From IMG/VR virus record IMGVR_UViG_3300037313_001869, positions 371,219 to 435,218 of that record: a stretch of 64,000 nt of DNA; one strand, 5' to 3'. This stretch comes from a virus. Its lineage: Duplodnaviria; Caudoviricetes. Numbering within the stretch: the stretch's first letter is position 1; each line of letters opens with the position of its first letter. Shown one piece after another: positions 14,445 to 62,004 of the stretch. The position numbers were made by a program, and so were the translations under genes. The notes beneath the pieces were generated by a model, which was not told the DNA's origin, searched no databases, and saw only the letters and a list, made by a program, of their open reading frames with translations.

Positions 14445-14858
14445 ATGTGGATCATCATCAAGGCCGAGAGGGTAGGGGAGTCGAACGACTGCGTGGACCG
14501 GGTCTCGGTGGAGTCTGGGGGCCTTGGGCTCTGGCTTGTGCCTGTTGGGGCCCGTTACCGGGTGGGGCGGGCCCCGACGCTCCGTCCGTTTCGGGAGCTT
14601 GACCCTGTGAAGGGGGCTTTGGAGCTTGGGCTCTTGGCTGGTGAGTGGCGGCTTCACTACCAGGTGCAGCGGGAGGGTCGTTACCAGGAGGGTCCGGCCA
14701 TCCACATTGTGGGGGAGGTCATCGAGGGCCGGTCTCTTCTCCGGGTGTCTGGGGCCCACACGGGCTTTTCGGTGGACTTCGAGATGGGGGGCCCGCTGCC
14801 GGTGCTTGGGGAAGCTCGTTCGGGAGTCTCGCGTTACGAAAGGGAGGGCCTTCTCTGA
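14445..14858 (+). CDS. RFxR-tail family protein
   Basis: ends SRYEREGLL. Confidence 0.75.
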   Translation: MWIIIKAERVGESNDCVDRVSVESGGLGLWLVPVGARYRVGRAPTLRPFRELDPVKGALELGLLAGEWRLHYQVQREGRYQEGPAIHIVGEVIEGRSLLRVSGAHTGFSVDFEMGGPLPVLGEARSGVSRYEREGLL

Positions 14859-15244
14859 TGCTCATCCGGGTGGTGGGGCGCGAGAGCATCGAGGTGGACC
14901 TTTCGGGGGAGTCTGGGAGGGTGGTGGTGGGGTGCGACCAGGGCTACCAGGTGACGCGGTACGGGGACCGTGTGCAGTGGGGGTCGATTCACGGGGAAGA
15001 GGTCCGCTACGTCCTTTGGGGGCACGGGGCGGGGGCTGTGTACGTCTACGAGCTGACGGGGAAGGTGGGCTGGGGGGTCCCGTGGCTTCGTATCGAGGGC
15101 GGGTGGGAGCGGTCGACGGGTCAGTACCTCGTGGTCGTGGGGCCTCGGGAAGGGGCGCCGCTGCTTCTCCGGCCTGTTTTGGCGCCTATTCGGGGCGGGG
15201 GAGTGGTGGGGGCGCCGCGGTACGAGAGGGATGACGTTCTATGA
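14858..15244 (+). CDS. RFxR-tail family protein
   Basis: TGATG start; ends PRYERDDVL. Confidence 0.75.
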   Translation: MLIRVVGRESIEVDLSGESGRVVVGCDQGYQVTRYGDRVQWGSIHGEEVRYVLWGHGAGAVYVYELTGKVGWGVPWLRIEGGWERSTGQYLVVVGPREGAPLLLRPVLAPIRGGGVVGAPRYERDDVL

Positions 15245-15642
15245 GGGTCGAGCTTCGGGCGGGTAACGGTCTCTACGGGCTCTGGACGGACCCTGACTTG
15301 GAAGGGGAGCGTTTGGCCCTCTGGGTGCCGGTGGGGCACACGCTGGTCTCGGGCGATGGGGCTGTGCTACCGCCCTCGGGGCACAGGGAGGGGATGCTAC
15401 GGCACTGGCTCTTCCTCTCCGCTTCGGAGGGGCTGAGGCGCTACCAGATTCGGATCGGGGGCGGGGTGGGCCACCCGGTGGTGAGCGACCTTACGCTCTT
15501 TCTCGAAGAGGGCAGGGCGGTCTTGCGGGTCGAGGGTCTCGGGGGCCGGCTCCCTGTGATGGTCTACCTTCGGGAGGTACCTACGGAAGGGGGTAGGGAG
15601 GTGATGGGCCCGGCCCGGTTCGAGAGGGACGAGGTTTTGTGA
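15241..15642 (+). CDS. RFxR-tail family protein
   Basis: ends ARFERDEVL. Confidence 0.75.
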   Translation: MRVELRAGNGLYGLWTDPDLEGERLALWVPVGHTLVSGDGAVLPPSGHREGMLRHWLFLSASEGLRRYQIRIGGGVGHPVVSDLTLFLEEGRAVLRVEGLGGRLPVMVYLREVPTEGGREVMGPARFERDEVL

Positions 15643-16034
15643 TGCGGGTGACCTTGGCCGGGAAGGACAGGCAGGTACTCGTGGACGAGGGGTTGTACCC
15701 TCACTCGTTCGTGGTCGACGATCCGGTGGGCTACCTCGTCTATCGGGAGGGGGCGGGGCCGCCGCCGGTTCCCTCCTATGCCGGGGAGACCCGGAGCTAC
15801 CTCCTTCTCCCGTTCGGGGCTGGCGACCCTTTCGTTTACAAGTTCGAGGTGGCTCCGGGGGTGGCGCTGGCCTTCCTCGACAGGGTCCGTTTCACAGGGG
15901 GGTGGGAAGCTGGGGGCTACATCGTGACGATGAAGGCCCAGGTCGGCCCCTCGTGGCGGTTCCGTTTTGCGTCGGCGCCCCGGCCGATCGCGCGTGTGGC
16001 CGTGGGTCGCTTCGAGAGGGACGAGGTGGTGTAG
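15642..16034 (+). CDS. RFxR-tail family protein
   Basis: ends GRFERDEVV. Confidence 0.75.
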   Translation: MRVTLAGKDRQVLVDEGLYPHSFVVDDPVGYLVYREGAGPPPVPSYAGETRSYLLLPFGAGDPFVYKFEVAPGVALAFLDRVRFTGGWEAGGYIVTMKAQVGPSWRFRFASAPRPIARVAVGRFERDEVV

Positions 16035-16042
16035 AGGACAGG

Positions 16043-16447
16043 GTGCGGATCTCGCTCATCCCGTTCGGCTCGCGGTTCCGGGTGACGTTTCGCCCGTGGA
16101 TCGCGGGAGGGGACGTACTCTTTCGCCTGCCTTCGCACCTGGAGCTTCGGCTCATGGGTTCCCTGGTCTTGGACGAGGTCTCTTCGGGGTCGGGCTTCAG
16201 CGTCTACCGGATCTCCCGGGAAGAGCTGGCGAAGGACCACGTCTACGTGGTGAACGAGCCCTACGTGGCGGGGGATCTCCCGGTCGTCGTGGGGAAGCTC
16301 CAGGGGACGTGGCACCCTGATGGCCTTTGGGTCTTGCACCTTGCGGCGGGCGAGGTCGATATCCAGTGGCACGTCCCGTCCGAGGAATGGACGTGGGAAG
16401 AACGGGGGCCGGCGGCGCCGCGGTTCGATCGTGAGGGCCCGCTGTGA
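16043..16447 (+). CDS. RFxR-tail family protein
   Basis: GTG start VRISL; ends PRFDREGPL. Confidence 0.75.
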   Translation: MRISLIPFGSRFRVTFRPWIAGGDVLFRLPSHLELRLMGSLVLDEVSSGSGFSVYRISREELAKDHVYVVNEPYVAGDLPVVVGKLQGTWHPDGLWVLHLAAGEVDIQWHVPSEEWTWEERGPAAPRFDREGPL

Positions 16448-16878
16448 GGCTTGTCGTGATGCCCGATCTCGGCCGTCCTTGTCCGGGGCAAGAGGTCGAG
16501 GTCATCCAGCAGCCGTGGGCGCACCCGGGCGAGGTCGTCCTCTCGGTGCCTGGGGCCTACGGCCTTTGGTGGACCGACGGGAGGGAGCGGACGGTCTATT
16601 CGCCCTTCGAGGTGTACGGCTCGCACCAATCGTTCTGTCTCTCCCGCTCTGCGATCGTTCGGGGCGAGTCCTACGTGCTCTACTACAAGGCCGGGGACCT
16701 GCTCTTCGGGAACATTCACGGGATGGAGAAGCTGAGCGTCCCTGGCACGGCGCTCTTTCTCAAGATGGAGCACTCCCCCGTGCTTCAGCGGTTCGACATC
16801 CCTTCCGGGCAGTGGACCTTGGAGCCTGGGGGGCGGCCGTCGGAGCTGACGAGGTTCGATCGCGACGAAGTGGTGTAG
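16444..16878 (+). CDS. RFxR-tail family protein
   Basis: ends TRFDRDEVV. Confidence 0.75.
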   Translation: MRLVVMPDLGRPCPGQEVEVIQQPWAHPGEVVLSVPGAYGLWWTDGRERTVYSPFEVYGSHQSFCLSRSAIVRGESYVLYYKAGDLLFGNIHGMEKLSVPGTALFLKMEHSPVLQRFDIPSGQWTLEPGGRPSELTRFDRDEVV

Positions 16879-16886
16879 GGGGCGGG

Positions 16887-17315
16887 GTGCGGATCTCGCT
16901 CTTCCCCTTGGGCACGCCTGGGGACTACTATCGGTTTCGGGTGGCCACCTGCCCCTGGTCGAACCGCGGGTCACTGGTGCTCTGCGTCCCTCGGCCGTTC
17001 CGGCTCTTTCTGGTCGACGATCGGGCGGGGACCGAGAGCGAAGAGACCTACAAGGTCGACGACGGCTACCGCGCGTACCCTCTCTCCCGGCTCGCTTTTC
17101 AGTCGGGGGGCACATACGAGGTCCGGATGGGGGAGAGGGGTCCGACTGCCTTGGTCGCGACGCTTCGTGGCCGGCACCAGCGGACCGAGGGCCTTTGGCT
17201 CTTGCATGTGAGGGGGACGGGGCTCGATGCTCGCTGGCAGATGCCCGACGACGAGTGGACGACCGGGCCTTCGGACGAATCCTTGGCACGCTTCGACCGT
17301 GAGGAGCCCCTGTGA
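16887..17315 (+). CDS. RFxR-tail family protein
   Basis: VRISL start, paralog of 16043; ends ARFDREEPL. Confidence 0.75.
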   Translation: MRISLFPLGTPGDYYRFRVATCPWSNRGSLVLCVPRPFRLFLVDDRAGTESEETYKVDDGYRAYPLSRLAFQSGGTYEVRMGERGPTALVATLRGRHQRTEGLWLLHVRGTGLDARWQMPDDEWTTGPSDESLARFDREEPL

Positions 17316-17692
17316 TCATCGAGGTGACCACAGGCTCTCTCCTTCACGTCCGGCCCGACGTGGTCCCCGGGCGCCTGATCTTCTACTTTCCGAGGGGGGA
17401 GCGGGTCTTCAACCTGGCGAATCAGGGCGAGGTCCTCCCCGTGGCGGGCCTCCGGGACCTCGTGGGCGAGCGCGGCTACGTGCTCGGGGTGGGGGACGAC
17501 ACGGCCCAGATGCTCAACTTCGTCGCTCGCGGGGCCTGGGGCGACACGGTGATCCGGGGCTGGACCGCCTCAGGGGGCTTCGTCGTTTCGGTCGTGACCC
17601 CCGAGCGTTTCTCGACCACCGTGCTTTTGAGCTGGGTACCTCGCCTCTCGGTCATGGGCCAGGACCGTTTCGGCCGGGACGAGGTGGTGTAG
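17312..17692 (+). CDS. RFxR-tail family protein
   Basis: ends DRFGRDEVV. Confidence 0.75.
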   Translation: MIIEVTTGSLLHVRPDVVPGRLIFYFPRGERVFNLANQGEVLPVAGLRDLVGERGYVLGVGDDTAQMLNFVARGAWGDTVIRGWTASGGFVVSVVTPERFSTTVLLSWVPRLSVMGQDRFGRDEVV

Positions 17693-17695
17693 ACC

Positions 17696-18094
17696 ATGCG
17701 CGTGGTCATCGAAACCGACAACGATCGCTGCGTGGTGGTCCACTCGTACGAGGGCCTCGATTCAGGGTCTCTCTCGGTGGTCATCCCCTCGCAGCAGGCG
17801 CTTCTCATCATGCGGGAGCCGGTCTGGCGTGCGGTCGGGCCCTCGTGGGAAGAGGGCAAGGTCGAGGGCTACTGGCTCTCTCTGCCCGAGGGGGTCGACG
17901 AGGCCCGCTACCAGGTCGAGGGCGGTCCGATGCTCCTTGGGCTCGTGCTTCGGAGGCTCCTGCTCTCGGGGGAGGGAGAGCTTCGGATCAACGGGCCTCG
18001 CATCGCCTGGGCCCTGCGCCTTCCTTCGGTACCCATCGGGCCGGGGGAGGTCTTGCCGCTGCGTCCGAGGTTCGACCGGGAAGAGGTGATCTAG
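17696..18094 (+). CDS. RFxR-tail family protein
   Basis: ends PRFDREEVI. Confidence 0.75.
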   Translation: MRVVIETDNDRCVVVHSYEGLDSGSLSVVIPSQQALLIMREPVWRAVGPSWEEGKVEGYWLSLPEGVDEARYQVEGGPMLLGLVLRRLLLSGEGELRINGPRIAWALRLPSVPIGPGEVLPLRPRFDREEVI

Positions 18095-18465
18095 TGCGGG
18101 TCGTGATGTTTCGGGCCATCCGGACCATGCCGTGGCTTGACGAGGAAGCGCTCTCGCTGGTGATCCCGTTTGCGAGCGATCTTCGCCTCGAACAGGGGAC
18201 CTTGATCGACCCGGCGGCCATGGAGAGCGGAATCAAAAAGTTCTGGCTCTACTTCCCCCCGGGCGCAGAAGTTGTGGAATACAAGGTGGTCAACTTGGCT
18301 TCGCGTGTCGTCCGGATTCTCCTCTACCGGGAGGGGGCCTTCAGTGTCGTTCGGATCAGCGAGTCGGAGCATCAGGTGCCGACGGAGCTAATCTTGCCAT
18401 TCGTCCCTTCCGCGCCCGGGGTGATGCGGGGCCCCGCTCGTTTCGACCGGGAAGAGGTGATCTGA
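18094..18465 (+). CDS. RFxR-tail family protein
   Basis: TAGTG coupling; ends ARFDREEVI. Confidence 0.75.
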   Translation: MRVVMFRAIRTMPWLDEEALSLVIPFASDLRLEQGTLIDPAAMESGIKKFWLYFPPGAEVVEYKVVNLASRVVRILLYREGAFSVVRISESEHQVPTELILPFVPSAPGVMRGPARFDREEVI

Positions 18466-18872
18466 TGCACATTGGACTTTTGACCAACAAGGACGAGACG
18501 ACCCGCGTGCTCGTGGGCGAGGCGCATCCGGGGATGGTCATCCTGAGCCTCGTGGCGCGCTACGGGCTCTTTCGGGGGAGCGACACGGTCCCTATGCCCC
18601 TCTACCGGAAGGACGGCATGTTCCATCGCTACCGGCTCGGGCTTCGGCCGGGCGAAACGGACTGCGTGTATCGGGCACACTGGCTCGGCACTCCCTCAGC
18701 CCGCCCCCAAGTCCAGGTGAAGCTTCGCGAGAGGCTCCCTGAGTACGGAGGCATCCCGATCCTCTGTACCCAGATCGAGGACGGGCCGATCTGGGAGCTG
18801 GAGCTGTCGTTTCGGCCGACCGAGACAGACGACTTTCCGTGCCTCCGTTTCGAGAGGGGCGAGGTCATCTGA
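18465..18872 (+). CDS. RFxR-tail family protein
   Basis: ends LRFERGEVI. Confidence 0.75.
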   Translation: MHIGLLTNKDETTRVLVGEAHPGMVILSLVARYGLFRGSDTVPMPLYRKDGMFHRYRLGLRPGETDCVYRAHWLGTPSARPQVQVKLRERLPEYGGIPILCTQIEDGPIWELELSFRPTETDDFPCLRFERGEVI

Positions 18873-19261
18873 TGCTCGTGAGACTCTATACCTCCTACGG
18901 CTGCCCGCGGTTCTTCGAGGGCATCTACCCCCGGCGCTTCGTGGTCGAGACGACCGACCCTTACGAGGTGAGGCGGGACGGGGCGGAGCTGACGCCGTCG
19001 TTCGTGGACCGGGGGGTACGGATCTTCGCGCTCGCGGCCGAGGGGTCGAGCGCGGCAACGTACGACTTCGAGCTTCGGGGCAACAGCGGGCCGATGGGGG
19101 GCCTTCGGGTCCGGGTGATGCCCGCGAGGGGCGGGGTGGGCTACGAGGTCTCTCTGAACTTTCGGGGAGGCCCTACGATGGCCTTCTGGACGGCGGACCA
19201 GCCTATGCCGTGGGCTGGGAACGAGGCCGTGCCTCGGTATGATAGGGGCGAGGTCATCTGA
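18872..19261 (+). CDS. RFxR-tail family protein
   Basis: ends PRYDRGEVI. Confidence 0.75.
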   Translation: MLVRLYTSYGCPRFFEGIYPRRFVVETTDPYEVRRDGAELTPSFVDRGVRIFALAAEGSSAATYDFELRGNSGPMGGLRVRVMPARGGVGYEVSLNFRGGPTMAFWTADQPMPWAGNEAVPRYDRGEVI

Positions 19262-19677
19262 TGCGCCTTCGCATCGACCCCCCTGGCGTGCTTGGAGGCG
19301 AGACGGGCCGGCTCATGGTCGACCTTGCCCTTTGCCCGGGCGAGGTCGTCCTCTACGCCTACCCCACCTACAAGGTCTACCGGGTCTATCGGTTCGTGAA
19401 AGACGAGGTCTTCGCCCCGGGGCCCAAATACGGCCTCCACTGCACCTACTGGCTCGGGTCGGACCCTGCCAAGGAAGACCGAGAGGTGGCCTACGAGGCG
19501 AGGCACCCGTCGGGCCTTCCGTTTCACTTCGCGATCGTACGGGGCGAGGGAGCCGTGAGGGTCCAGGTCTCGGCCAAGGGTCTGCCCTACGTGCTTGACG
19601 CCTCCCTCGACTTCTGGCCGAGGGGGAGCACGGGCGAGGGCGGGCCGCCCCGGTTCGATCGGGACGAGGTCCTATGA
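19261..19677 (+). CDS. RFxR-tail family protein
   Basis: ends PRFDRDEVL. Confidence 0.75.
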   Translation: MRLRIDPPGVLGGETGRLMVDLALCPGEVVLYAYPTYKVYRVYRFVKDEVFAPGPKYGLHCTYWLGSDPAKEDREVAYEARHPSGLPFHFAIVRGEGAVRVQVSAKGLPYVLDASLDFWPRGSTGEGGPPRFDRDEVL

Positions 19678-20084
19678 GGGTGCGCCTCTACAGTGGGGTC
19701 TTTGGCTGGACGGTCGAGATCAACCCTTGGTCGGACGAGGGCCGGCTCGTGCTCACGATGCCCGAGCGGTTTCGGCTGGTGAGGTATGGCCACGACGACA
19801 TCAAGGTGCCCGTGGCCCCGCTCCCAGGGGACGTGGACGCGGTCGGGCACAGCCACTTCGAGCTAGGGGCGAACGAGGGGGAAGAGGGCTTTCGCTACGA
19901 GGCCCAGGACGCAGGGGTCACGGCCGTGTTTCTCCTCTTCAAGGATTTCGGCGTCCTCGGCTCCCGCTATCTCTTCCGGGGCCGGGTCGAGGGGGGCGGG
20001 TTTCTTTGTGACACGGTCCTCCCCTGCCCGCCGAGGCTCGGGGGAGAGGGTGCGCCTCGGTTCGAGCGTCCCGAGGTGCTTTAG
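19674..20084 (+). CDS. RFxR-tail family protein
   Basis: ends PRFERPEVL. Confidence 0.75.
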   Translation: MRVRLYSGVFGWTVEINPWSDEGRLVLTMPERFRLVRYGHDDIKVPVAPLPGDVDAVGHSHFELGANEGEEGFRYEAQDAGVTAVFLLFKDFGVLGSRYLFRGRVEGGGFLCDTVLPCPPRLGGEGAPRFERPEVL

Positions 20085-20698
20085 ACGACTGCGACGCTGA
20101 CCATGGTGGCGTCGGGGTTCGCTCGGCTTCGCTGGGCGACGACCTTGGCTTTGACGGGGCCGAGGTCGTTGCGGACGACCTGCACGATGGCGTCGCGGTC
20201 TGCCCAGGGGCCGGCCTCGAAGGTGATGGTGAGGAGGTTCTTGCCCACCTTCAGATCGTCCGGCCCTACCTTGTAGCCCGCTTTGGCGAGGGCCCCCAGG
20301 AGCTTCTTGCCCAGGTCCTCTAGCCCCTCGGTCTGCTCGACGAAGTAGTGCATGGCCGCCCCGATGGCCATCTCGATGTCCGACATCAGCTCGACGCCCT
20401 TCTGATCCGTCATGGTCCGCTTGATGCCGGAGACCTCCTGGGCGAGGTCCGAGAGCAGGTCCTTTTCGGCGGTCCAGGGAGAAGAGGAAGCGCGGCGATC
20501 GTAATGGTAGGGGGCCATCGTGGTACGGTGGCCAAAAGTGGATTCGGGCTTCTGCTGGTGGGCGAGGACAGCTCGCACGTATTCTTGGGCAAAGATTTCT
20601 CGGTTCTCGGGGGTCGAGGCCGCCCGCATGAGAATCTCGAACTTCTCCTCCAAGGTGAACTCACGACCGGGCGAGGGTTTGTCTTGGTCTTCGCTCAT
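20081..20698 (-). CDS. hypothetical protein (possible second start near 20518, MAPYHYDRRA)
   Basis: open frame with typical codon bias in the C-terminal part. Confidence 0.6.
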   Translation of the reverse strand: MSEDQDKPSPGREFTLEEKFEILMRAASTPENREIFAQEYVRAVLAHQQKPESTFGHRTTMAPYHYDRRASSSPWTAEKDLLSDLAQEVSGIKRTMTDQKGVELMSDIEMAIGAAMHYFVEQTEGLEDLGKKLLGALAKAGYKVGPDDLKVGKNLLTITFEAGPWADRDAIVQVVRNDLGPVKAKVVAQRSRANPDATMVSVAVV

Positions 20699-20729
20699 GG
20701 GCCGAAAACATAACATCGGTGAGGCGTAC

Positions 20730-20936
20730 ATGGCTGCAAAAAGGCGTTCGGAGGTGCCCTTGGACGTGACCGGTCGTGTGCTTCGGATCGGGGACCGGGT
20801 CGAGTCGACGCCGGGGCTCTCTTCCGAGAGGGAGACGGGTGAGGTCGTGGGCGTGAAGGACACGCGGGTCGAGGTCCGCTACGACTCGACGGGCGTGATC
20901 TGGCGTTCGTCGGGGAAGCTCTGGCGGGCGGTGTAG
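20730..20936 (+). CDS. small SH3/KOW-like protein
   Basis: DVTGRVLRIGDRV..GEVVGV..VEVRYD. Confidence 0.6.
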   Translation: MAAKRRSEVPLDVTGRVLRIGDRVESTPGLSSERETGEVVGVKDTRVEVRYDSTGVIWRSSGKLWRAV

Positions 20937-20951
20937 GGGACGGCAGATCCC

Positions 20952-21347
20952 ATGCTCATCGACGTTGTCACTCCGCAGCGGTTCTGGATCTACGCAAACC
21001 GTTTCACGACCACGCTCGTCTTCACCGTGCCCGACGGGGGGAGGGTGACTCACGGGCAGCCCTTCACGGTCCCAGGCGAGGTGGGTCCTTCGTTCGAGGT
21101 CGCGCGCTCCTCGCTCCCGTCCGGAGCGGGGCACCGGATCGCTGTTTCTTGGTCGGCTCGTGGCAAGAGAGAGCGGCTCGCGTTCCGGCTCGTCGTGGCG
21201 GGCGAGGAAACCTGGCTCGACTTGCCCAACAGCGGGGGCGTCCTCTGGGTCCCTGGCTACGGCCGGATTCGCCGTATGAAGCAGGTGGAGCGGTACCAGC
21301 CTACGCCTCCGCCGCCTCCTCGGTTCGATCGGGGCGAGGTGCTCTGA
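20952..21347 (+). CDS. RFxR-tail family protein
   Basis: ends PRFDRGEVL; CGGTGTA upstream. Confidence 0.75.
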   Translation: MLIDVVTPQRFWIYANRFTTTLVFTVPDGGRVTHGQPFTVPGEVGPSFEVARSSLPSGAGHRIAVSWSARGKRERLAFRLVVAGEETWLDLPNSGGVLWVPGYGRIRRMKQVERYQPTPPPPPRFDRGEVL

Positions 21348-21754
21348 TGCGGATCAACCTGAACCCTTCCGAGGGGAAAGAGCCTGTGGTGCGGCCGTGG
21401 GAAGACCTGGGGAAGCTCGTCGTGACAACGGAGGCGCCGGCCGTCATGCAGCCCGTGGACATTCGGCTAAACCCCCTCGTGGGCCAGCCGTATAGCGGGT
21501 GGTTGATCTTTGAGATTCCCCGGCCCGAAAACGGGGTCTTTGGCTACTACATCCTGCCGGCCGAGGACAAGCCCTACCTCTACGCCATCCAAGCGCTGAT
21601 TCGCCAAGCCTTCGATGGTTTTGCGGAGTGGAACTTGCATATCGTCTCCTCGTCGGGGCCGTCCGTGCGGGTGCTCTTGCCCGACCGGGAGTGGCGCAGG
21701 CCCCTGCCTTCCGATGGGCGCCCGGCCCGTTTCGAGAGGTCCGATGTATTGTAA
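21347..21754 (+). CDS. RFxR-tail family protein
   Basis: ends ARFERSDVL. Confidence 0.75.
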   Translation: MRINLNPSEGKEPVVRPWEDLGKLVVTTEAPAVMQPVDIRLNPLVGQPYSGWLIFEIPRPENGVFGYYILPAEDKPYLYAIQALIRQAFDGFAEWNLHIVSSSGPSVRVLLPDREWRRPLPSDGRPARFERSDVL

Positions 21755-21778
21755 ACCTCTTGTCACTGGCGGGTGGGT

Positions 21779-23248: not shown

Positions 23249-23301
23249 CCTTCGCCCGGTGTAAAACCGGGCATGAGCGCGATCTCCCGGGCGGCTGAGC
23301 C

Positions 23302-24466: not shown

Positions 24467-24912
24467 GGATCGTGATCGACCCAGCCATGATCGTGAAAAA
24501 CCAGTTCGGGCGGGACGAGCACCGGATCGAGCTTCTCGAAGAAGACCTCGGGCAGGTAGCGCTTTACGTTCCTCCGGTCTTCGAGCTTCAGCGGGGAGGG
24601 CTCCCGGTACCCAGCGTCGAGGCCGGGTCGTGGCGTCGCTACGAGCTTGGGGTCTATACGGACGAGGCCCGGGCCACCTACCACCTACGGGGGCCGACCA
24701 TGGGTCCCAGACAGCTCGCTTGGGTTCGGATCAATCTCTTTCGCGAGTCCTACCCGGACGCCCAGGGCGTCGAGGTCCAAGGGCTCGTGGGGACGCTACA
24801 CACGGCCGGCGGGGTTGTGCGGGTCTTCGTGGCCAAGCCGGTCTCGCCCCCGTCGTGGCATCCACGGGCACCCTCGGCAGCGACCCGCTTCGAGAGAGAC
24901 GGGGTGCTCTGA
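24463..24912 (+). CDS. RFxR-tail family protein
   Basis: ends TRFERDGVL. Confidence 0.75.
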   Translation: MRIVIDPAMIVKNQFGRDEHRIELLEEDLGQVALYVPPVFELQRGGLPVPSVEAGSWRRYELGVYTDEARATYHLRGPTMGPRQLAWVRINLFRESYPDAQGVEVQGLVGTLHTAGGVVRVFVAKPVSPPSWHPRAPSAATRFERDGVL

Positions 24913-25298
24913 TGCTCGTCTATGTTGGCCCGAGCCACTCGCAGCCCACGGTCACCTTCGAGACGTTCGCCTACCCGAACGAGCTGGTCTTCGAGCTGGA
25001 CGATCACCTCCGGCTCTTCCCCGAGCAAGGTGACCGGCTGGAGAGGTCGGTCGATGGCCATACCCCATGGCGAATCAAGCTCCCGAAAGGATGCGACGAG
25101 GGCTACAACCTCGACCTTCAGACAGCGCCCAAGGGGCAGAAGACCCACCTCGAAATTCGTTTGCGAAAGCAGGATGGCGTGGGGACCTGGCGCGTCACGG
25201 TCGTCTACGGCGTCATGTTCACGTCCCTCCTTTTTCTCTGGCACCCGACGAAGGAGGCCCCACCGCCTCTCCGCTTCGAGCGGGAAGGGGTCCTCTGA
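24912..25298 (+). CDS. RFxR-tail family protein
   Basis: ends LRFEREGVL. Confidence 0.75.
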   Translation: MLVYVGPSHSQPTVTFETFAYPNELVFELDDHLRLFPEQGDRLERSVDGHTPWRIKLPKGCDEGYNLDLQTAPKGQKTHLEIRLRKQDGVGTWRVTVVYGVMFTSLLFLWHPTKEAPPPLRFEREGVL

Positions 25299-25762
25299 TG
25301 CTCGTCATCTTGACCCGGCTCATCGCCGACTATGCCGAGGGTCCCTTGCCCCTTCAGGGTCCGCCCTACATCGATTTGCGTGCCTGCCCGGGAAGGGTCC
25401 GGATCGCAGTGCCGTGCGTGCATCTGGTCACGATCGACCGGCAGAGCCGGTACGGTACCCGGACGCTCAACATCCCCGAAAACGAGGGCATCTACCAGCT
25501 CTACTCGGTCGGCTACCGGCCGGGCGAAGAGGGCCAAGAGGTGGTCCACCGCGCGTGGGCGAGGGAGAGTGGCAAGGTGCTGGAAGCGTGGGTGACGCTC
25601 GACAAGGAAGCCCGGCCCGATCCCGCTCAGGTCGTCACGGTGCGGCACGGGTTTCCTGCGAAGGTCATCGCTCGTGTGTTCCTCGGCGAGGACTACGACC
25701 TCGACTACCAGGAAGAGATCCCGCGGGAGGGCGAGAGCCCCTCTCGCTTCGCGAGGCTCTGA
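25298..25762 (+). CDS. RFxR-tail family protein
   Basis: ends SRFARL. Confidence 0.7.
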   Translation: MLVILTRLIADYAEGPLPLQGPPYIDLRACPGRVRIAVPCVHLVTIDRQSRYGTRTLNIPENEGIYQLYSVGYRPGEEGQEVVHRAWARESGKVLEAWVTLDKEARPDPAQVVTVRHGFPAKVIARVFLGEDYDLDYQEEIPREGESPSRFARL

Positions 25763-26181
25763 TGCTGGTCGAGGTCAGCGTTCGGCATCGGATCGACCCG
25801 GGCCTGCACCCGGGCGAGATCCGGCTTCGTGTGAGACCCAGCTACACGGTGAACGGGCCCGAAGGCCGGCTCGCGTCCGTTCACAGGGTCCCGAACGATG
25901 GGATGCGATTCGGCTTCGCGGACTACCTGCTCGCTCCGCCTCGGCCCGGACTTGACGTGGCCGAGTATCACATCTGCGGGCCCGAAGGCGGGTGGCCTAT
26001 CTCGCACGTACAGCTCTTCTGGGAGACGAGCGAAGGCAAGGTCATCTGGTGGGTGAAGTCTGACGGCCTTTCGGTCCGAGCCTACGACTTTCAGCCCGGC
26101 ATGACCATCGAGGGCGGGAGCCTGGTCTCTCCCGAGACGCCCGACCGTTTCTCTCGCGTGGGGGATAAAGACCCGTTCTGA
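25762..26181 (+). CDS. RFxR-tail family protein
   Basis: ends DRFSRVGDKDPF. Confidence 0.7.
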   Translation: MLVEVSVRHRIDPGLHPGEIRLRVRPSYTVNGPEGRLASVHRVPNDGMRFGFADYLLAPPRPGLDVAEYHICGPEGGWPISHVQLFWETSEGKVIWWVKSDGLSVRAYDFQPGMTIEGGSLVSPETPDRFSRVGDKDPF

Positions 26182-26213
26182 GTCTCGCCTCCCCGGTGTA
26201 AGGGACGCCCACA

Positions 26214-27365
26214 ATGGCGAGAACACCTTGGTGGCAGGCGCGGACGTACCCCTCGTTCGGCGATCACTTTTCTTTCACCGTCAACTGGTATCGCACGGTG
26301 GCCGTCCAGGCGGCCTTCGAGGGCGGCCCCCCGTGTCTCCTCGGTCGTCGCAACGGCGTGCTCACCAAGGGCCATGACGAGGCCGTCAAGGAGCTGGTCG
26401 AGGCGCTCGGGGTTCGGGTCGTGCTCGACGATCGCGACGAGCTGGGCCGGGGGACGATCGGCCTCGGCTCCCATGACATGCAGGTCGTCTTGACCCTCTG
26501 GGGCTCGCCGTCGAACATGACCGGGGACCTTCAGTTCACCTGCGTGAGCCCGGAGCTGCTCTCGAAGGCCCGCGACCTCTCGAAGCACCTGCTCCGGCCC
26601 CCGTCGAAGGAGGGAGGTCCGGTCTTCGCTCTCACGAAGAACGGCGACGACTACGACACGACGCGCATCGGTACAGCCGGTTCGCCCCTGGAGCGCGGAA
26701 ACTACGGCGCCAAGGTCCTCGAAGACTACGACCACCTGGTCAAGGACCTCGGGGCGAAGACGCCCTGCGGCCGGCTCGTCATCTTCTCGGGCGAGCCTGG
26801 CACGGGCAAGACCTTCCTGGTCCGCTCGCTCCTCTTGAACGTGAAGGACGCCACCTTCCTGCTCGTGCCCCCGCACCTGATGGCGAACCTCGGCGACCCC
26901 GAGCTGATCTCGGTCCTTGCCGGGGCCCGCGAGGGGAAGGGTCCGCTGGTCATCCTGGCCGAGGACGCCGACGACTGCCTCGTTCCGCGCGAGGACGGGG
27001 ACCACGTCGACCTCGAAAACATCCAGGCCGTCCTGAACCTCGGCGACGGCATCCTCGGCAGCGTGCTCGACGTGCGCGTGGTCATCACGACCAACGCCCC
27101 GCGCATGAAGATGGACCGGGCGGCCATCCGGCCCGGCCGTCTCTGCAAGCACCTGCACGTCGATGCGCTGAGCCCCAAGGAGGCCGAAGCGGTTCTCGAC
27201 CGGCTTCTCGTGACCCGTGAGCCGAGCATGGTCCCGGTCTTCTCCGACGCGACCCCGCTCGCGCAGGTCTACGCCAAGGCGCGGCAGATGGGGTGGGTAC
27301 CGCCCGAGCCCCCGTCCGACGACGCAGAGGAAGAGGTTGACAGCGACGACTCCTACCCGGGCTGA
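26214..27365 (+). CDS. AAA-family ATPase
   Basis: Walker A GEPGTGKT, Walker B VILAEDAD, sensor TTN, second region of homology AAIRPGRL. Confidence 0.9.
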   Translation: MARTPWWQARTYPSFGDHFSFTVNWYRTVAVQAAFEGGPPCLLGRRNGVLTKGHDEAVKELVEALGVRVVLDDRDELGRGTIGLGSHDMQVVLTLWGSPSNMTGDLQFTCVSPELLSKARDLSKHLLRPPSKEGGPVFALTKNGDDYDTTRIGTAGSPLERGNYGAKVLEDYDHLVKDLGAKTPCGRLVIFSGEPGTGKTFLVRSLLLNVKDATFLLVPPHLMANLGDPELISVLAGAREGKGPLVILAEDADDCLVPREDGDHVDLENIQAVLNLGDGILGSVLDVRVVITTNAPRMKMDRAAIRPGRLCKHLHVDALSPKEAEAVLDRLLVTREPSMVPVFSDATPLAQVYAKARQMGWVPPEPPSDDAEEEVDSDDSYPG

Positions 27366-27446
27366 CCCTCTCTCTGAAGCCCCGTGAGCCCCGGTCTCTT
27401 TTGCAGAAAAGAGACCGGGGCTTTTTCGTTTGGTGTAGGAAAAACC

Positions 27447-27722
27447 ATGGCCAACCCGCCACCTCCGGTCGTCCCGCTCACCGAAGAAGAGTTCCAGGCG
27501 CGGCTCGTGAAGTACCGGCCCGACCCGCCTGCCAAGCCCATGACAGATGAGGAGATCCAGCGCGGGATTCTCTATGCTGCGATCATGGCCCTCAACATCC
27601 GGTCGGCCGAGAAGCTCGACATGATCCAGGAGATTGCGATCCTTCGGGGCTGCGTGGCTCAGCTCTGGCACGCGATCGAGGACATGCACGAGGGCCGGGT
27701 TCCCGGTTCGGGAAGGCGGTAG
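27447..27722 (+). CDS. hypothetical protein
   Basis: GGTGTA-AGGA upstream of ATG. Confidence 0.6.
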   Translation: MANPPPPVVPLTEEEFQARLVKYRPDPPAKPMTDEEIQRGILYAAIMALNIRSAEKLDMIQEIAILRGCVAQLWHAIEDMHEGRVPGSGRR

Positions 27723-27727
27723 GCCCC

Positions 27728-28135
27728 GTGTTCCTGCTCTACATGCACGGCCACCTCGGGATGAACCTCCGGTCGATGGCGGGGGTGTTTGCGGTCGTCC
27801 TCCCGCAGGGCGAGGTGACCGTGGAGGGCCCCAACCTCACCTTCTTGCCCGAGCCGCTTCGTCCTTCGGGGTTCGACGATCAAGAGTTCTACGAGATCGG
27901 CGAGCCGAGCGAAGAAGAGCGGAAGCGCGGCCGGGTCTATTACCGGATCTCGGGCGAAGGGCAACCGACCGTCGAGTTCGAGCTGGTCTACAACCTCTCG
28001 GCTTGGTTTCTCGCCATGGGCCCTGATGCGGCCCAGATCCGCGTGGCGTTCGATGCCCGGGCCGATGCCGGCTGGGGCGTTCCTCGGGACCCGAGCGGCG
28101 TGCCGCCTCGGTTTGATCGGGAGTCGCCCCTGTGA
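27728..28135 (+). CDS. RFxR-tail family protein
   Basis: ends PRFDRESPL. Confidence 0.75.
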   Translation: MFLLYMHGHLGMNLRSMAGVFAVVLPQGEVTVEGPNLTFLPEPLRPSGFDDQEFYEIGEPSEEERKRGRVYYRISGEGQPTVEFELVYNLSAWFLAMGPDAAQIRVAFDARADAGWGVPRDPSGVPPRFDRESPL

Positions 28136-28509
28136 TCCTCTCCTACCGCCACGAGTACCCGTGCCTTGCGACCCACCTAGCGAAGGGCCGGTTTCTCGTC
28201 GAACTCATCCCTGGTGGCAAGGTCACAGGCCCGGCTGTGCGCAAGCTCCCTGACCGCGACGGCCCGGTGTTCTACCATGTCTCCAAGCCCCCGGGCGCCG
28301 AGCCCTTGGCCGAGTACGAGGCGAGCTGGCCTCACATTCGGGGGCGCAGGAAGGTCAAATTTGAGGTTTGCCGGGCGGCGATCGTGTGGGTCGTCACGTT
28401 CCGTTTCAAGGGTGAGCCCATCGAGATCCTGATCCACGAAAACGAGCTTGGCTGGGGGCCTCGTGATCCCCAAGGGCCCGAACGCTTCGAGCGAGAAGAG
28501 GTGCTTTGA
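28132..28509 (+). CDS. RFxR-tail family protein
   Basis: ends ERFEREEVL. Confidence 0.75.
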   Translation: MILSYRHEYPCLATHLAKGRFLVELIPGGKVTGPAVRKLPDRDGPVFYHVSKPPGAEPLAEYEASWPHIRGRRKVKFEVCRAAIVWVVTFRFKGEPIEILIHENELGWGPRDPQGPERFEREEVL

Positions 28510-28943
28510 TGCGCGTCTATATGGTGGCCAACGCCCTGAGGCAGGGCTTCGATGTTTCGGTCGACCTCGACCCTTCGCGCGACCCGCAGCAGTTCCGGGT
28601 CGAGCTAGCCAGGGATCTTTTTCTCCGGGGCCAGGACTTCGCCGAGCCTGTGTCCGGCGCCGACAACAACGGCCAGCTCTGGCGCCTCGCCTACCCCTCC
28701 GGAGGCTTCTCCGAGTTCGAGGTCTTGCATCGGGACCTCGACGATCGCGCGGCACGGGTTGCTGTGCTCTCTTTCAGCCATGGCAACGAGAGCGACATGT
28801 GGTCGGTCCGCGTCACGGCCAACTCGTGTAACATCTCGGTACCCTTCAAGTGGACGCCGATCGGCGTGGTTCGCCCCTGGCAACCGAAGGGCCCACCCAC
28901 CCTCGACCCTCCGGCCCGCTTCGACCGCGGAGAGGTGCTCTGA
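28509..28943 (+). CDS. RFxR-tail family protein
   Basis: ends ARFDRGEVL. Confidence 0.75.
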   Translation: MRVYMVANALRQGFDVSVDLDPSRDPQQFRVELARDLFLRGQDFAEPVSGADNNGQLWRLAYPSGGFSEFEVLHRDLDDRAARVAVLSFSHGNESDMWSVRVTANSCNISVPFKWTPIGVVRPWQPKGPPTLDPPARFDRGEVL

Positions 28944-29329
28944 TGCTGGTCTCGGCGCAGGGGCCGCTCGTGGACCCCACGGTCTACCCCGGGCGGCTCG
29001 TTCTTGTTCTCCACCAGGGCCATCAGCTTTTCTATCCTAACGGAGAGCCCCACCCGATCTGGATCAGGAACGAGAACTACTACTGCATCGTACCGCCGTC
29101 GCTCGCTCCTTCCGTCGACATGGAGTGGCGCTACCCGGTGAAGTGGAAGAAGCGCAACGGCCATGCCGAGGCGAACCATTTCAAGCTCACCTACGAGGGC
29201 TCGTCCCGCTGGGTGGTCTGGTCTCCCTGGGGTGGTGTTCGGGCCGTGATCCCGGGCTACGGCAGCGAGATCGACAATCACAAAGAAGGGCCCCCGGCTC
29301 CGCGCTTCGAGAGGGACGACGTTCTCTAG
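28943..29329 (+). CDS. RFxR-tail family protein
   Basis: ends PRFERDDVL. Confidence 0.75.
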   Translation: MLVSAQGPLVDPTVYPGRLVLVLHQGHQLFYPNGEPHPIWIRNENYYCIVPPSLAPSVDMEWRYPVKWKKRNGHAEANHFKLTYEGSSRWVVWSPWGGVRAVIPGYGSEIDNHKEGPPAPRFERDDVL

Positions 29330-29357
29330 GATTTTTCCGGTGTCTTGAGGGGGCGCC

Positions 29358-29759
29358 ATGCTCATCGACCTGACCCGCACCCCGCCTCAGATCCAGGCCA
29401 ACGAGTTCCCGGAGGAGCTTGTGTTCGACCTGGACGGGGGCGATGGACAGTACGGCGTGATCCAGCGGCCTAATGGCGAGCGCTTGCCCGTCGAGTACCT
29501 TGGCGGTCCCGAGCGGGTGAGCCGCATTCCGCTTCTTCTCCCGGGCGTGGTCACCGGCCTTTACACGTTCTATTTCGGCGACAAGGCGTTCCGTAGCTTC
29601 ACCCTCTCGTGTCCTTGGGGCGAGCCGACTTTCCTGCTCTGGTCCCTTCGTATCGAGGGCTTCGTCAACCTGTCATTCGAGACCAAAAGGGTTCGGCCTG
29701 CCCCGCTCCCACCCCCTCCGGGGACGCCCCCACGCTTCGAGAGAAACGAGGTGCTCTGA
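29358..29759 (+). CDS. RFxR-tail family protein
   Basis: ends PRFERNEVL. Confidence 0.75.
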   Translation: MLIDLTRTPPQIQANEFPEELVFDLDGGDGQYGVIQRPNGERLPVEYLGGPERVSRIPLLLPGVVTGLYTFYFGDKAFRSFTLSCPWGEPTFLLWSLRIEGFVNLSFETKRVRPAPLPPPPGTPPRFERNEVL

Positions 29760-30175
29760 TGGTTGTCCTCGTTGACCTTGGGGTCGTTACGCTTGAGCCC
29801 GGACTCCAACCCCGGGAGCTAGTCCTCGCGTACTCTGACGTGTCCCGTGGCCGGATTGTGTCTGACCGCGGGCCCGCCTTCGACGAGAGCCACCCGGGGC
29901 ACATGCGCCATGCGGCCCATACGTGGTTCGCTATTCCCCTCGCGGAAGCGACCGTGCCTGGGGCGAGGTACGTGATCGAGGTGCAGGGCTTCTCGCAGGT
30001 GTCGGTATGGGTCACGTCGAGTGACCTCGGGCCTTCACGGTACGCCGTCGAGGTTCTCCGGGGCGGCTATCGCACCCGGTGCATCCTTCCGCCGCTCCCG
30101 GCTGCCGTACCAGGGGCGCAGCCGTTCACGCCCCCTGCCGTGCTGCCCCGGTTCGAGAGAGACGAGGTTCTCTGA
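29759..30175 (+). CDS. RFxR-tail family protein
   Basis: ends PRFERDEVL. Confidence 0.75.
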   Translation: MVVLVDLGVVTLEPGLQPRELVLAYSDVSRGRIVSDRGPAFDESHPGHMRHAAHTWFAIPLAEATVPGARYVIEVQGFSQVSVWVTSSDLGPSRYAVEVLRGGYRTRCILPPLPAAVPGAQPFTPPAVLPRFERDEVL

Positions 30176-30633
30176 TGATGATCATGGTCTACGTTGATGA
30201 CGTGCCGCATCTTCGGATGGACGACTATCCGGGCGAGCTTCGCATCTGGACGCAGGATGGGTGGTACGTCTACGACGAGCTTGACCGGGTTCTGCCCTTC
30301 GAGGAAGAAGAGGACGACGAAGACGAGGGCGTCGCCTACGGCTTCATCATTCGCCGGCAACGGGCCACCCCCAACGAGCACATGTTCCAGTTCTACGTAC
30401 GCGAGCAGTCGAGGGAGCGCACACCCCTTGCCCTGTCGAAGTACACGATCCAAGTCTCGCCCGATGACGAAGACGAGACCCTTGCCCACATCCGGGTTCT
30501 CGGGAGCGATGGAAACAGCGTCTTCGGTTTCTGGGTCACCGACTGGGTCGAGACCCCGAGGCTGGGGGTCTCTCAGCCCGAACCGAGCGAGCCCACGGGC
30601 CCGCCCCGCTTTGATCGCGAGGAGATCCTCTGA
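30175..30633 (+). CDS. RFxR-tail family protein
   Basis: ends PRFDREEIL; close paralog of next gene. Confidence 0.8.
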   Translation: MMIMVYVDDVPHLRMDDYPGELRIWTQDGWYVYDELDRVLPFEEEEDDEDEGVAYGFIIRRQRATPNEHMFQFYVREQSRERTPLALSKYTIQVSPDDEDETLAHIRVLGSDGNSVFGFWVTDWVETPRLGVSQPEPSEPTGPPRFDREEIL

Positions 30634-30636
30634 GCC

Positions 30637-31095
30637 ATGCTGGTATCCCTAGTGCCGCACCCGGCCCCCCACCTTCACCCGGACGAGTACCCGGGGGAGC
30701 TGCGTATCCTGGTCCCAGAGGGCTGGAACATCTACGACGAGTTCGATCGGGAGGTGGCCTCCGAGAGGAGCGCTTCCGCCCACACGTTCGTCATTCCCCG
30801 GGCGGAAAGCGTCCACGACGATCCATTCATCTACTACCTGCGCCAGAAACCCCGGTGGCAGATCCCTCTGGATGTATCGAGGCTGGCCTTCTACGTCACC
30901 CCCGACGACCATGACGCCATGCTCGCCTACGTGCGCGTCGTGAACAGCAAGTCCGAGGTTCTCTGTGGTTTCTGGGTCACCGACTGGGGTGCCCAAACGC
31001 ACCCGAGCGAGGTGCCCCCGGCCTTTCAGGGGCCCGAATCGAAGCTTGCCGAACCCACGGGGCTTTACCGCTTCGATCGTGGGGAGGTCCTCTGA
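30637..31095 (+). CDS. RFxR-tail family protein
   Basis: ends YRFDRGEVL; shares YPGELRI, YDE, GFWVTDW with previous gene. Confidence 0.8.
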   Translation: MLVSLVPHPAPHLHPDEYPGELRILVPEGWNIYDEFDREVASERSASAHTFVIPRAESVHDDPFIYYLRQKPRWQIPLDVSRLAFYVTPDDHDAMLAYVRVVNSKSEVLCGFWVTDWGAQTHPSEVPPAFQGPESKLAEPTGLYRFDRGEVL

Positions 31096-31096
31096 C

Positions 31097-31714
31097 ATGC
31101 TCGTCGACTTCGCCGCAGAACCCCTGCTCATCCCCGACCCCTACCCCCGGGTCGTGGCCTTGCGTCTCTACGGGAGCGATGCCACGGCCCGCATGTTCGA
31201 TGAGCGCGAACCGCTCGACGACATCACCATGGAGGGCGACGACAGCACCCTCTTTTTCATCGACGCCAGCGACCTCCGCGGGGGCGGCCCGTGGTTCTTC
31301 GAGGTCATGACCCAGCGGGCGAACCACCGCTACAGCCGCTTCGTCGTCGAGCTACACCTTCACAGCTACGATCGCGAGGGCATCGAGCCCGACATACATC
31401 GGCTCGTGATCCGCCAGGGCAAGGCGAGTTTCTCGACCCTCCTCTACGACTTCGGAGCCGAGGGCGACGAGGTACCGGTGGCGGCTGACGTGGGGGATAG
31501 CCAAGGAGAAGACGAGGCCATGGCGGTGCTGTTCCCCCCGGAGCCGCCTCCCGAGCCGTTGCAGGCGACCATCCAACGGTCTCTCCCGGCCCGTTTCTAT
31601 CCGCGCACAGTCCTGAGCGAAGTCCCCGACGACGCCGAGGTTATCGAGGAATGGGAGCCCGGGTTCGCCCCGAAGCGTAAGCGGACACGATTCGACCGCG
31701 AAGGGCCGCTCTTA
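31097..31714 (+). CDS. RFxR-tail family protein (proposed end at in-frame TTA)
   Basis: TRFDREGPL immediately followed by TTA (31712-31714); the standard code would extend it about 1.25 kb antisense to the next gene. Confidence 0.75.
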
Positions 31715-60554: not shown

Positions 60555-60565
60555 GAGAGAGGGCC

Positions 60566-61497: not shown

Positions 61498-61509
61498 AGG
61501 CACTAGGCC

Positions 61510-61998: not shown

Positions 61999-62004
61999 CC
62001 TGCC

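Follow-up and report, generated by a model that had tools for sequence, protein, structure and literature searches.

An array of small genes with a common C-terminal tail

The subject of this study is an array of 32 small genes in the genome of an uncultured phage, IMG/VR virus record IMGVR_UViG_3300037313_001869 (here called G0; 435,218 bp, direct terminal repeats, 64.8% GC), for which megablast found no near relative among GenBank phages. The stretch of DNA that was analysed, the window, comprises the final 64 kb of this record (G0 371219-435218), and coordinates labelled 'window' are counted from its first letter. As listed in Table 1, the array occupies window 14445-31714, where all 32 genes (m01 to m32) are co-oriented on the plus strand and encode proteins of 116-154 amino acids (aa), except for one of 205 aa. 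The array is interrupted only by a minus-strand gene, a gene for a protein with an HExxH motif, an AAA ATPase gene, and one small gene. The junctions within the runs of members, 27 in number, are mostly stop/start overlaps of 1 or 4 nucleotides (21 junctions), the other six being spacers of 1-28 nucleotides. The AAA ATPase gene is followed by a terminator-like hairpin, and therefore the array consists of at least two transcription units there. Since the longest reading of the small gene that comes next (start at 27384) overlaps this hairpin, a start around 27447 is likelier.

Of the 32 members, 29 end in R-[FY]-x-R plus four residues directly followed by a standard stop codon, and the third residue of this tail is D or E in 27 of these 29, the exceptions being m08 (RFGR) and m18 (RYLR), which gives R-[FY]-[DE/G/L]-R-x-x-x-[LIV] as the consensus of the array members. 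The tails of m22 and m23 are degenerate (Table 1). In m32, the tail RFDREGPL is followed by TTA and there is no standard stop codon for 420 codons, so that the end at 31714 is valid only if TTA terminates; this TTA (window 31712-31714) is also the reverse complement of the TAA stop codon of a convergent gene at 31712-32836. The array alignment shows a Pro-rich linker between body and tail and, at the other end of the proteins, a start of the form M-[RL]-[IVL] in 27 of the 32 members, with a P..PG.L.L motif near residues 15-25. An earlier, sequence-only reading of this DNA had described 32 co-oriented, mostly translationally coupled genes with a Pro-rich linker and a common tail, as well as M-[LR]-[IV] starts and a PG motif near residues 15-25, and both descriptions are confirmed by these counts.

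The bodies of the array proteins form one family

When the last 12 residues were removed, 12 of the 496 pairs of bodies matched each other at E < 1e-3, and these matches were collinear and mostly between neighbours (body to body for m30-m31, m05-m07, m18-m19, m09-m10, and m24-m25). The bodies have diverged to about 20% identity, and a leave-one-out profile, with the last 12 residues cut as well, recovered 27 of the 32 members at E <= 0.01. Because of this recovery and the collinear matches between neighbours, the 32 bodies are, as judged from profile and pairwise matches, one family that has grown by local tandem duplication and then diverged. The cores had been described before as barely alignable, a view that does not hold against the profile result. 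An AlphaFold2 model of m14, based on the 32-row alignment, had a predicted local distance difference test score (pLDDT) of 89 and a predicted template modelling score (pTM) of 0.81, and showed ten strands over residues 1-120, followed by approximately 16 unstructured residues at the C-terminus. Thus, the earlier suggestion that the cores are beta-rich agrees with the all-beta model.

The family could not be linked to a known one. None of the five members tested matched a Pfam family at E <= 0.1, MBG_2 included, and a PHROG search of array members gave no match; the sequence-only reading had likewise been aware of no described phage family with this tail. With the model of a member as query, Foldseek against the PDB gave a best E of 0.02 with a TM of 0.25, VIA-align wide matches with a Z of at most 5.4 that included no MBG entry, and BFVD nothing, and the ESM Atlas returned only generic beta-sandwiches with TM < 0.5. 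The core-domain profile found no member of the body family in three related huge phages that are introduced below (G1, G2, and G3). A search for related loci with the family alignment gave no conserved stretch of use. A word-indexed search with the family profile, covering 5.8 billion proteins, returned no proteins other than those of the phage itself; to these, an exhaustive search of 1.84 billion representatives added a single homologue from elsewhere, P0044, as well as weak matches to MBG_2 adhesins over multiple repeats. P0044 is located on a 2.8-kb contig of run SRR22868770 that carries three coupled genes ending in RYSRDEVV, RYERDEVV, and RYERAEVV. As far as these searches reach, the body family is confined to G0 and this one other contig fragment. 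The adhesin matches concern the MBG_2 repeats (PF18676) of giant bacterial adhesins, to each of which the array profile aligns weakly, over a strand, a loop, and a Y-x-L..G-E..G-x-Y-x-V pattern. However, single array members have no Pfam match, hhalign gave a weak probability of 41% over 56 columns, and the fold searches recovered no MBG_2 domain.

The tail is a portable tag on chain termini

The tail is not confined to the array. Its core was counted as R[FY][DE][RKH] in a six-frame translation of the whole genome, with 'near stop' defined as within 8 residues. The core occurs 168 times in G0, of which 95 are near a stop and 54 exactly four residues before one, compared to 18-62 occurrences, with 0-8 near a stop, for each of 22 order-permuted control motifs. 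About 100 open reading frames (ORFs) of G0 are tagged, mostly at the C-terminus and sometimes at the N-terminus. They are concentrated towards the two genome ends (G0 0-65 kb and 345-435 kb), and there are almost no tags in the central region for replication and virion genes. The portable motif reads P-[TS]-R-F-[DE]-R with an acidic/hydrophobic end, and in the array it takes the form P-[TSPA]-R-[FY]-[DE]-R, then two mostly acidic residues, and then [VP]-[LIV] at the chain end; short forms and N-terminal copies within the window are included in Table 1. The core-domain profile found none of the other ORFs of G0, and therefore the other tag carriers have different bodies; a Pfam search with 20 of the longer tagged G0 proteins gave no domain. 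The tail is thus a portable tag on chain termini that is independent of the array family and of translational coupling.

The sequence-only reading had pictured a variable domain with a constant tail. The architecture of a folded body, a disordered Pro-rich linker, and a constant peptide stands, but the tail is not specific to the family, as it occurs on about 100 unrelated ORFs. Because unrelated ORFs, and related phages, bear the tag, the suggestion in the same reading of a shared sorting or packaging signal, or of one docking hub, is favoured over a role that is specific to the array. We found no description of the tag motif in the papers that we searched. Portable terminal address tags are already a known kind of element; what is new is the sequence of this tag and the all-beta family.

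The tag in related huge phages

Pattern scans of IMG/VR found the tag repeatedly in G1 (IMGVR_UViG_3300037067_009442, 228 kb), G2 (3300028654_000001, 512 kb, with terminal repeats), G3 (3300037088_000682, 71 kb), and in several contigs of smaller size. No IMG/VR record matched the strict G0-type tail pattern, and a metagenome scan for the tag contributed, besides the contig from which G2 derives, just one small contig. Over approximately 190 kb, G0 and G2 are collinear, with 40-74% identity. The tag cores lie near a stop in 56 of 76 cases in G1, 61 of 103 in G2, and 17 of 23 in G3. These three phages have a GC content of 49-51%, thus the tag is conserved over a range of 49-65% GC. The relatives use two forms, form A, P-T-R-F-E-R-[ED]-[DE]-V-I at the very end of the protein, and form B, P-T-R-F-E-R-[IV]-L-x-acidic, which is also found directly after the initiator Met and is then followed by a Pro-rich stretch, indicating that a free C-terminus is not essential to the motif. 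Orthologues in G0, G1, G2, and G3 with bodies that are 30-40% identical keep the tag. A DNA pattern for form A occurred 45 times in G0, 32 times in G1, 21 times in G2, 8 times in G008, 6 times in the 60%-complete record G007, and 0-5 times in seven other large records, compared to 0-2 for controls. A Pfam search with 108 carriers of G1-G3 returned only a RecA/KaiC-like ATPase, a BED finger, an Ig-like domain, and a Tad2-like (anti-Thoeris) domain, and these predicted domains fit an accessory set of the counter-defence type.

The major capsid protein of G0 is of the HK97 type (PF05065; 292 aa, G0 215188-216063, minus strand) and is 92% identical in G2, although the two genomes differ in GC content (65% versus 49%) and their other core proteins are just 40-74% identical. 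At 90-95% identity this capsid protein is present in more than 570 IMG/VR contigs, many of which are 300-530 kb long, which points to a very large clade of huge phages with what seems a nearly frozen capsid protein. We considered whether the capsid protein is conserved through co-evolution with the tag, but dropped this idea, as it is equally conserved in relatives with few or no tags, and its conservation is therefore unrelated to the tag. Partial paralogues of the capsid protein that end in the tag are encoded at G0 42948-43859, G2 220830-221597, and G3 53834-54589 and 55682-56590; they copy the N-arm/E-loop/spine-helix region, which is permuted in one of them. A sequence similar to the tag, R-R-F-D-L-I-E-R, is present in the capsid protein itself.

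Selection acts on the peptide

The Arg codons of the tag are varied, with CGG 23, CGC 20, CGT 8, and AGG 3 at motif position 1, and AGG 15, CGC 14, CGG 13, CGT 5, AGA 4, and CGA 2 at position 4. This confirms the synonymous Arg variation reported in the sequence-only reading, both the CGN and the AGR boxes being used. In addition, D and E alternate in the tag, and tails occur on both strands and before convergent genes. An explanation at the level of DNA would be that the tail is a stop/start coupling cassette, in which GAGGT serves as the Shine-Dalgarno sequence of the next gene and which has been spread by duplication or gene conversion. Indeed, E-V is often encoded as GAG-GTN in the array, 6 nucleotides before the overlapping ATG. 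However, GAGGT is not enriched in coupled tails (15 of 39) compared to uncoupled ones (5 of 15), tails are present on both strands and before convergent genes, their Arg codons come from two codon boxes, and N-terminal copies of the tag exist. Most telling, the relatives of 49-51% GC use the same peptide with other codons, often as E-D-V-I without GAGGT, which argues for selection at the protein level. A DNA-level origin is thus scarcely credible, and we rejected the Shine-Dalgarno explanation on the evidence of GAGGT counts, codons, strands, and relatives; conservation purely at the level of DNA was part of what, according to the earlier reading, would refute it. The claim of protein-level selection in that reading was borne out by the codons, the relatives, the orthologues, and the GAGGT counts, and we regard it as very probable that the tail is a portable docking tag that works as a peptide.

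TTA appears to end genes in G0

As mentioned above, the end of m32 depends on whether TTA terminates. In 48,304 codons of G0 that were aligned to orthologues, TTA occurred once, two codons before the end, whereas CTA occurred 34 times and AGA 27 times. Overall, TTA is found in G0 at 1.3 per 1000 trinucleotides versus 5.4 expected from base composition. In at least 10 G0 genes, the first in-frame TTA comes 1-6 codons past the point where the G2 orthologue stops. Five tags are followed by TTA within 4-6 codons with a standard stop codon 36-471 codons away, where 0.85 such cases are expected, and an AAA paralogue of G0 ends in an acidic tail followed by TTA-GCC-ATG (TTA at G0 59164). Codon usage and gene ends together suggest that TTA appears to end genes in this phage, and because of this m32 is taken to end at its TTA. 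The tag can thus be used as a ruler for protein ends, and gives independent evidence for termination at TTA.

An AAA ATPase as candidate reader of the tag

The AAA ATPase encoded within the array matches PF00004 with E = 1e-8 and AFG2/Cdc48 structures in the PDB with E = 1e-15. Its Walker A (GxPGxGKT), Walker B (EDAD), sensor 1 (TTN), and Arg-finger (RPGR) motifs are kept in five AAA orthologues. Two further AAA genes are present in G0, a second copy (57982-59163) and a more distant one. Orthologues are present in the tag-bearing G1, G2, G3, and G008, and the only complete relative without an AAA gene, G011, has no tags. Immediately upstream of the AAA gene lies a gene whose product carries the tag at its end in G2 (..NPSRFERDIGI), in G3, in G008, and for both G0 copies, and a variant of the tag in G009 (..PTRFDLEPPI) and G010 (..PTAWERMLLDFPDP). 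In the fully fetched, tag-poor G009, four of approximately 10 credible tags are no more than 2 kb away from one of the two AAA genes, compared to approximately 0.3 expected. These associations make the embedded classical AAA ATPase the best candidate for a reader of the tag, a proposal that we put forward tentatively and hold to be somewhat less probable than its negation.

A complex prediction in which the AAA ATPase was paired with the C-terminal 44 residues of a member had a score of 0.00, which counts neither for nor against binding, and in an AlphaFold2 model of the AAA protein the N-domain, with a pLDDT of 25-65, was too poor for a fold search. A search for related loci with the AAA protein gave no confirmed relative. 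The AAA proteins are of two paralogous types, one with a long poly-Asp/Glu tail and one with a G-W-x-P-P-P end, both with Walker B E-D-A-D and N-L-G or similar at the pore loop, and in G2 and G3 the acidic-tail type is followed by a conserved gene of approximately 100 aa ending in R-P-P-G-R.

Table 1. Array members and other features of the window (window coordinates)
Feature	Position	Strand	Details
N-terminal tag copy	2999..3040	+	M-P-K-T-R-F-D-H-I-..D-D-A-P-P-P
Two ORFs in overlapping frames, outside array	8297..9096	+	short-form tags ..SRFERVLG, ..TRYERVLSG
m01	14445..14858	+	137 aa; RYEREGLL
m02	14858..15244	+	128 aa; RYERDDVL
m03	15241..15642	+	133 aa; RFERDEVL
m04	15642..16034	+	130 aa; RFERDEVV
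m05	16043..16447	+	134 aa; GTG start; RFDREGPL
m06	16444..16878	+	144 aa; GTG start; RFDRDEVV
m07	16887..17315	+	142 aa; GTG start; RFDREEPL
m08	17312..17692	+	126 aa; GTG start; RFGRDEVV
m09	17696..18094	+	132 aa; RFDREEVI
m10	18094..18465	+	123 aa; GTG start; RFDREEVI
m11	18465..18872	+	135 aa; RFERGEVI
m12	18872..19261	+	129 aa; RYDRGEVI
m13	19261..19677	+	138 aa; RFDRDEVL
m14	19674..20084	+	136 aa; RFERPEVL; ends run 1, then convergent gene; member modelled
Non-member gene in block	20081..20863	-	260 aa; no family match (Pfam, PHROG)
m15	20952..21347	+	131 aa; RFDRGEVL
m16	21347..21754	+	135 aa; RFERSDVL
Non-member gene, HEFGH (HExxH) motif	21773..23248	+	491 aa; weak metallopeptidase matches; orthologue in G2
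m17	23302..23724	+	140 aa; RFDREGVL
m18	23724..24116	+	130 aa; RYLRDEVL
m19	24116..24466	+	116 aa; RFEREEIL
m20	24463..24912	+	149 aa; GTG start; RFERDGVL
m21	24912..25298	+	128 aa; RFEREGVL
m22	25298..25762	+	154 aa; degenerate tail ..SPSRFARL
m23	25762..26181	+	139 aa; degenerate tail ..PDRFSRVGDKDPF; directly upstream of AAA gene
Classical AAA ATPase (PF00004)	26214..27365	+	383 aa; 170-aa N-domain without assignment; final gene of its transcription unit
Terminator-like hairpin	27386..27423	+	17-bp GC-rich stem, then T run; after AAA gene
Small non-member gene	27447..27722	+	start at MANPPPP..; alternative start 27384
m24	27728..28135	+	135 aa, start uncertain; RFDRESPL
m25	28132..28509	+	125 aa; RFEREEVL
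m26	28509..28943	+	144 aa; RFDRGEVL
m27	28943..29329	+	128 aa; RFERDDVL
m28	29358..29759	+	133 aa; RFERNEVL
m29	29759..30175	+	138 aa; RFERDEVL
m30	30175..30633	+	152 aa; RFDREEIL
m31	30637..31095	+	152 aa; RFDRGEVL
m32	31097..31714	+	205 aa; RFDREGPL, then TTA (31712-31714)
N-terminal tag copy	52550..52604	-	M-A-T-Q-R-T-R-Y-D-R-I-A-P-D.., then Pro-rich stretch
Seven tagged ORFs, other bodies	60374..63758	+	..RYERLLSC, ..RFDRLTRPAV, ..RFERI, ..RYERM, ..RYERLGHDE, ..RFDREEPV, ..RFERVG

Other genes

Several other genes of G0 were recognised. The minus strand of the window encodes an R2K-clade ATP-grasp protein (PF18299, E = 1e-39; window 47029-47835), which is conserved in G1 and G2 and could act as a peptide ligase on the acidic tails of proteins, and a TnpB/Cas12f-like protein with OrfB_IS605 and TNB domains (window 49174-50433). 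Papain-like cysteine peptidases (PF00112) are encoded at G0 72003-72794 and 319266-320156, and also in G1, G2, and G3, and a ClpP-like gene at G0 274091-274564 is present in G0 alone. G0 also encodes Ro60 (TROVE and vWA domains), a PTH2 peptidyl-tRNA hydrolase, a peptide deformylase, a DnaJ-domain protein, an Acb1/2'-5' ligase-like protein, and DUF4419.

Discussion

We propose that the array encodes tandemly repeated all-beta domains of approximately 120 residues, each of which would be joined by a disordered Pro-rich linker to a short linear motif. The tag would dock all its carriers on one common partner, so that they could be handled as a class, and the preferred partner would be the conserved, single-ring classical AAA ATPase that is embedded in the array. 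Most plausibly, the purpose would be to deliver or load an arsenal that evolves fast, for instance into the procapsid, from which it would be ejected together with the DNA; unfolding or turnover of the carriers would be the alternative. As a whole, with a portable docking tag, a common partner, the AAA ATPase as the preferred one, and loading, this is the best explanation that we can offer, and we give it slightly less than an even chance. Head loading would be its most attractive purpose, and would stand either as the main rival to reading by the AAA ATPase or as the purpose downstream of it. In this context, the loading of folded proteins into heads has been proposed by Iyer and colleagues as a role of jumbo-phage AAA ATPases (PMC7824862). 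A bolder version holds that these phages possess a sorting system of their own, with a terminal code on up to ~15% of the proteome that is read by the AAA ATPase, folded clients that are delivered, most plausibly into the procapsid for injection, and the array as an expanding effector library, but this we consider unlikely.

A number of observations weigh against the proposed explanation. The link between the AAA ATPase and the tag is drawn solely from gene neighbourhood and co-occurrence, and in tag-rich genomes the adjacency of the AAA gene to tagged genes is expected by chance. G007, which bears tags, has no AAA match in its 60%-complete record, and AAA orthologues are also present in G004, G012, and G006, relatives in which strict tags are few or absent, so the AAA gene is not tag-specific. 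Furthermore, the pore-loop position of the AAA ATPase reads N-L-G, without an aromatic residue, and its Walker B has E-D instead of D-E, features that, by sequence, are atypical for a processive unfoldase. With respect to loading, the Gln-rich, scaffold-like protein adjoining the capsid gene carries no tag, the tagged genes lie outside the head module, and the array members are near-neutral, unlike the basic internal proteins of T4.

The tag resembles several known systems without being identical to any of them. The AAA+ machines recognise terminal peptides in a number of cases, such as ssrA and ClpX, the MIT-MIM pairs of Vps4, and CbbX with the Rubisco tail. As in these cases, a short terminal peptide could be common to the clients of one ATPase, and here the AAA gene lies in the tagged array. 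However, the carriers are far more numerous and diverse, the pore loop is atypical, and clientship is predicted from gene context. The earlier analogy to the poxvirus ankyrin/PRANC (F-box-like) families is apt in that these combine a variable binding body with a constant C-terminal docking module in an expanded viral family. PRANC is a folded domain that binds host Skp1, whereas the element described here is a linear motif of 6-10 residues that is common to unrelated bodies. Bacterial microcompartments likewise use encapsulation peptides as short terminal addresses to a protein shell. The cargo-loading peptides of encapsulins (PMC8346489) send unrelated proteins to an HK97-fold shell by means of a short conserved terminal peptide and a flexible linker, and the tag shows the same combination of terminal peptide, flexible linker, and unrelated cargo. 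The G-S-L-type motif of the encapsulin peptides is absent, though, and the sole shell protein here is the phage's own capsid protein.

Among phages, the internal proteins of the T-even group are highly diverse, act in counter-defence, and share only a capsid-targeting sequence (CTS) (PMC3012670). The T4/T-even CTS locus thus also combines hyper-diverse small proteins with a short shared terminal peptide, and varies between relatives. The CTS of T4 is N-terminal and of another sequence, binds the scaffolding core, and is cut by the prohead protease, whereas the tag described here is mostly C-terminal, has ~100 carriers, and is known from genes alone. The tag differs from this CTS in position and in consensus, as 95 of the 168 cores are C-terminal and the copies at N-termini also have an RF[DE]R core instead of the T4 sequence. 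In the giant phage SPN3US, paralogue family B comprises 20 proteins that mass spectrometry identified as head proteins (PMC5694885). This family is likewise a large tandem array of diverged paralogues, with a copy number that is very plastic between relatives, but it has no sequence relation to the array, and no common terminal tag has been described for the SPN3US proteins.

We also considered other explanations. The tag might be a capsid-targeting signal with the scaffold or the inner surface of the capsid as its direct binding site, without an AAA ATPase, so that the arsenal is packaged and ejected with the DNA. The architecture is that of loading peptides, with a short peptide at either end, a flexible linker, and many unrelated small bodies, and the T-even internal proteins that share only a CTS (PMC3012670) and the 20-member SPN3US array of head paralogues (PMC5694885) would be precedents. 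Other points in its favour are the capsid-protein fragments that occur as tagged paralogues in G0, G2, and G3, the one tagged body that is Tad2-like, which fits an anti-defence cargo, and, as a weak lead, the resemblance of the HExxH protein to peptidase modules of polyvalent/minor-capsid proteins. Yet the scaffold-like protein has no tag, the more than 570 contigs with a capsid protein of 90-95% identity include relatives in which tags are few or absent, ~100 cargo species would be unprecedented, and no cleavage motif is evident, which makes direct capsid targeting rather unlikely. Alternatively, the tag could be a degron, whereby the AAA ATPase unfolds tagged early proteins, or the targets to which these bind as adaptors, and either the HExxH peptidase encoded in the block or a protease of the host then degrades them, resulting in timed turnover. 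Terminal peptides are the usual degrons of AAA+ machines (ssrA/ClpX), a Cdc48-like AAA ATPase and an HExxH protein both lie within the array, and the tagged genes are accessory and, by position, early-looking. But the HExxH protein was found in just one of the three relatives, the ClpP-like gene is found in G0 alone when compared with the relatives, the pore loop has no aromatic residue, and the destruction of 15% of its own proteome would be costly to the phage, so that we regard a degron as quite unlikely.

The docking partner might also be a hub of the host (for instance the ribosome, RNA polymerase, a chaperone, or membrane machinery) or a further protein of the phage, for example the vWA domain of its Ro60. 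The tag behaves as a short linear motif at either terminus, the phage encodes both Ro60-vWA and a DnaJ-domain protein, which are conserved in relatives, and the R-[FY]-[DE] core of the tag recalls the acidic-residue ligands of metal ion-dependent adhesion sites (MIDAS), although this is a resemblance only. However, we found no PDZ domain in G0, G1, and G2, and tag use varies strongly among phages with nearly the same virion and probably similar hosts, and a hub of this kind therefore seems distinctly improbable. Finally, the tag may be a site for processing or modification, at which either the papain-like or the HExxH peptidase cuts or the R2K ATP-grasp ligase adds residues, in the way that RimK extends the tail of S6. 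The R-x-x-R core followed by an acidic end would suit this, all four tag-rich records share the papain-like C1 peptidase, and the R2K ATP-grasp is encoded in the window and in G1 and G2. However, the peptidase and ligase genes are tied to the tags only by co-occurrence in the same genomes, and papain-type enzymes prefer a hydrophobic P2, which fits poorly with cleavage after RFER. For these reasons we consider processing or modification highly unlikely.

The 32-gene array represents a new protein family, with a confidently modelled all-beta domain without a known fold match, that evolves by tandem duplication. If the tag is an address label, it provides a list, readable from sequence, of ~60-100 proteins per genome that would be handled together and that probably constitute an arsenal for host takeover or counter-defence; if the phages indeed have their own sorting system, the set of injected effectors could be read straight from sequence. 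The tag is also a simple experimental handle, with one peptide and one reader, and the large size of the clade, in which the use of the tag ranges from ~0 to ~100 genes per genome, offers a natural comparison set for finding that reader.

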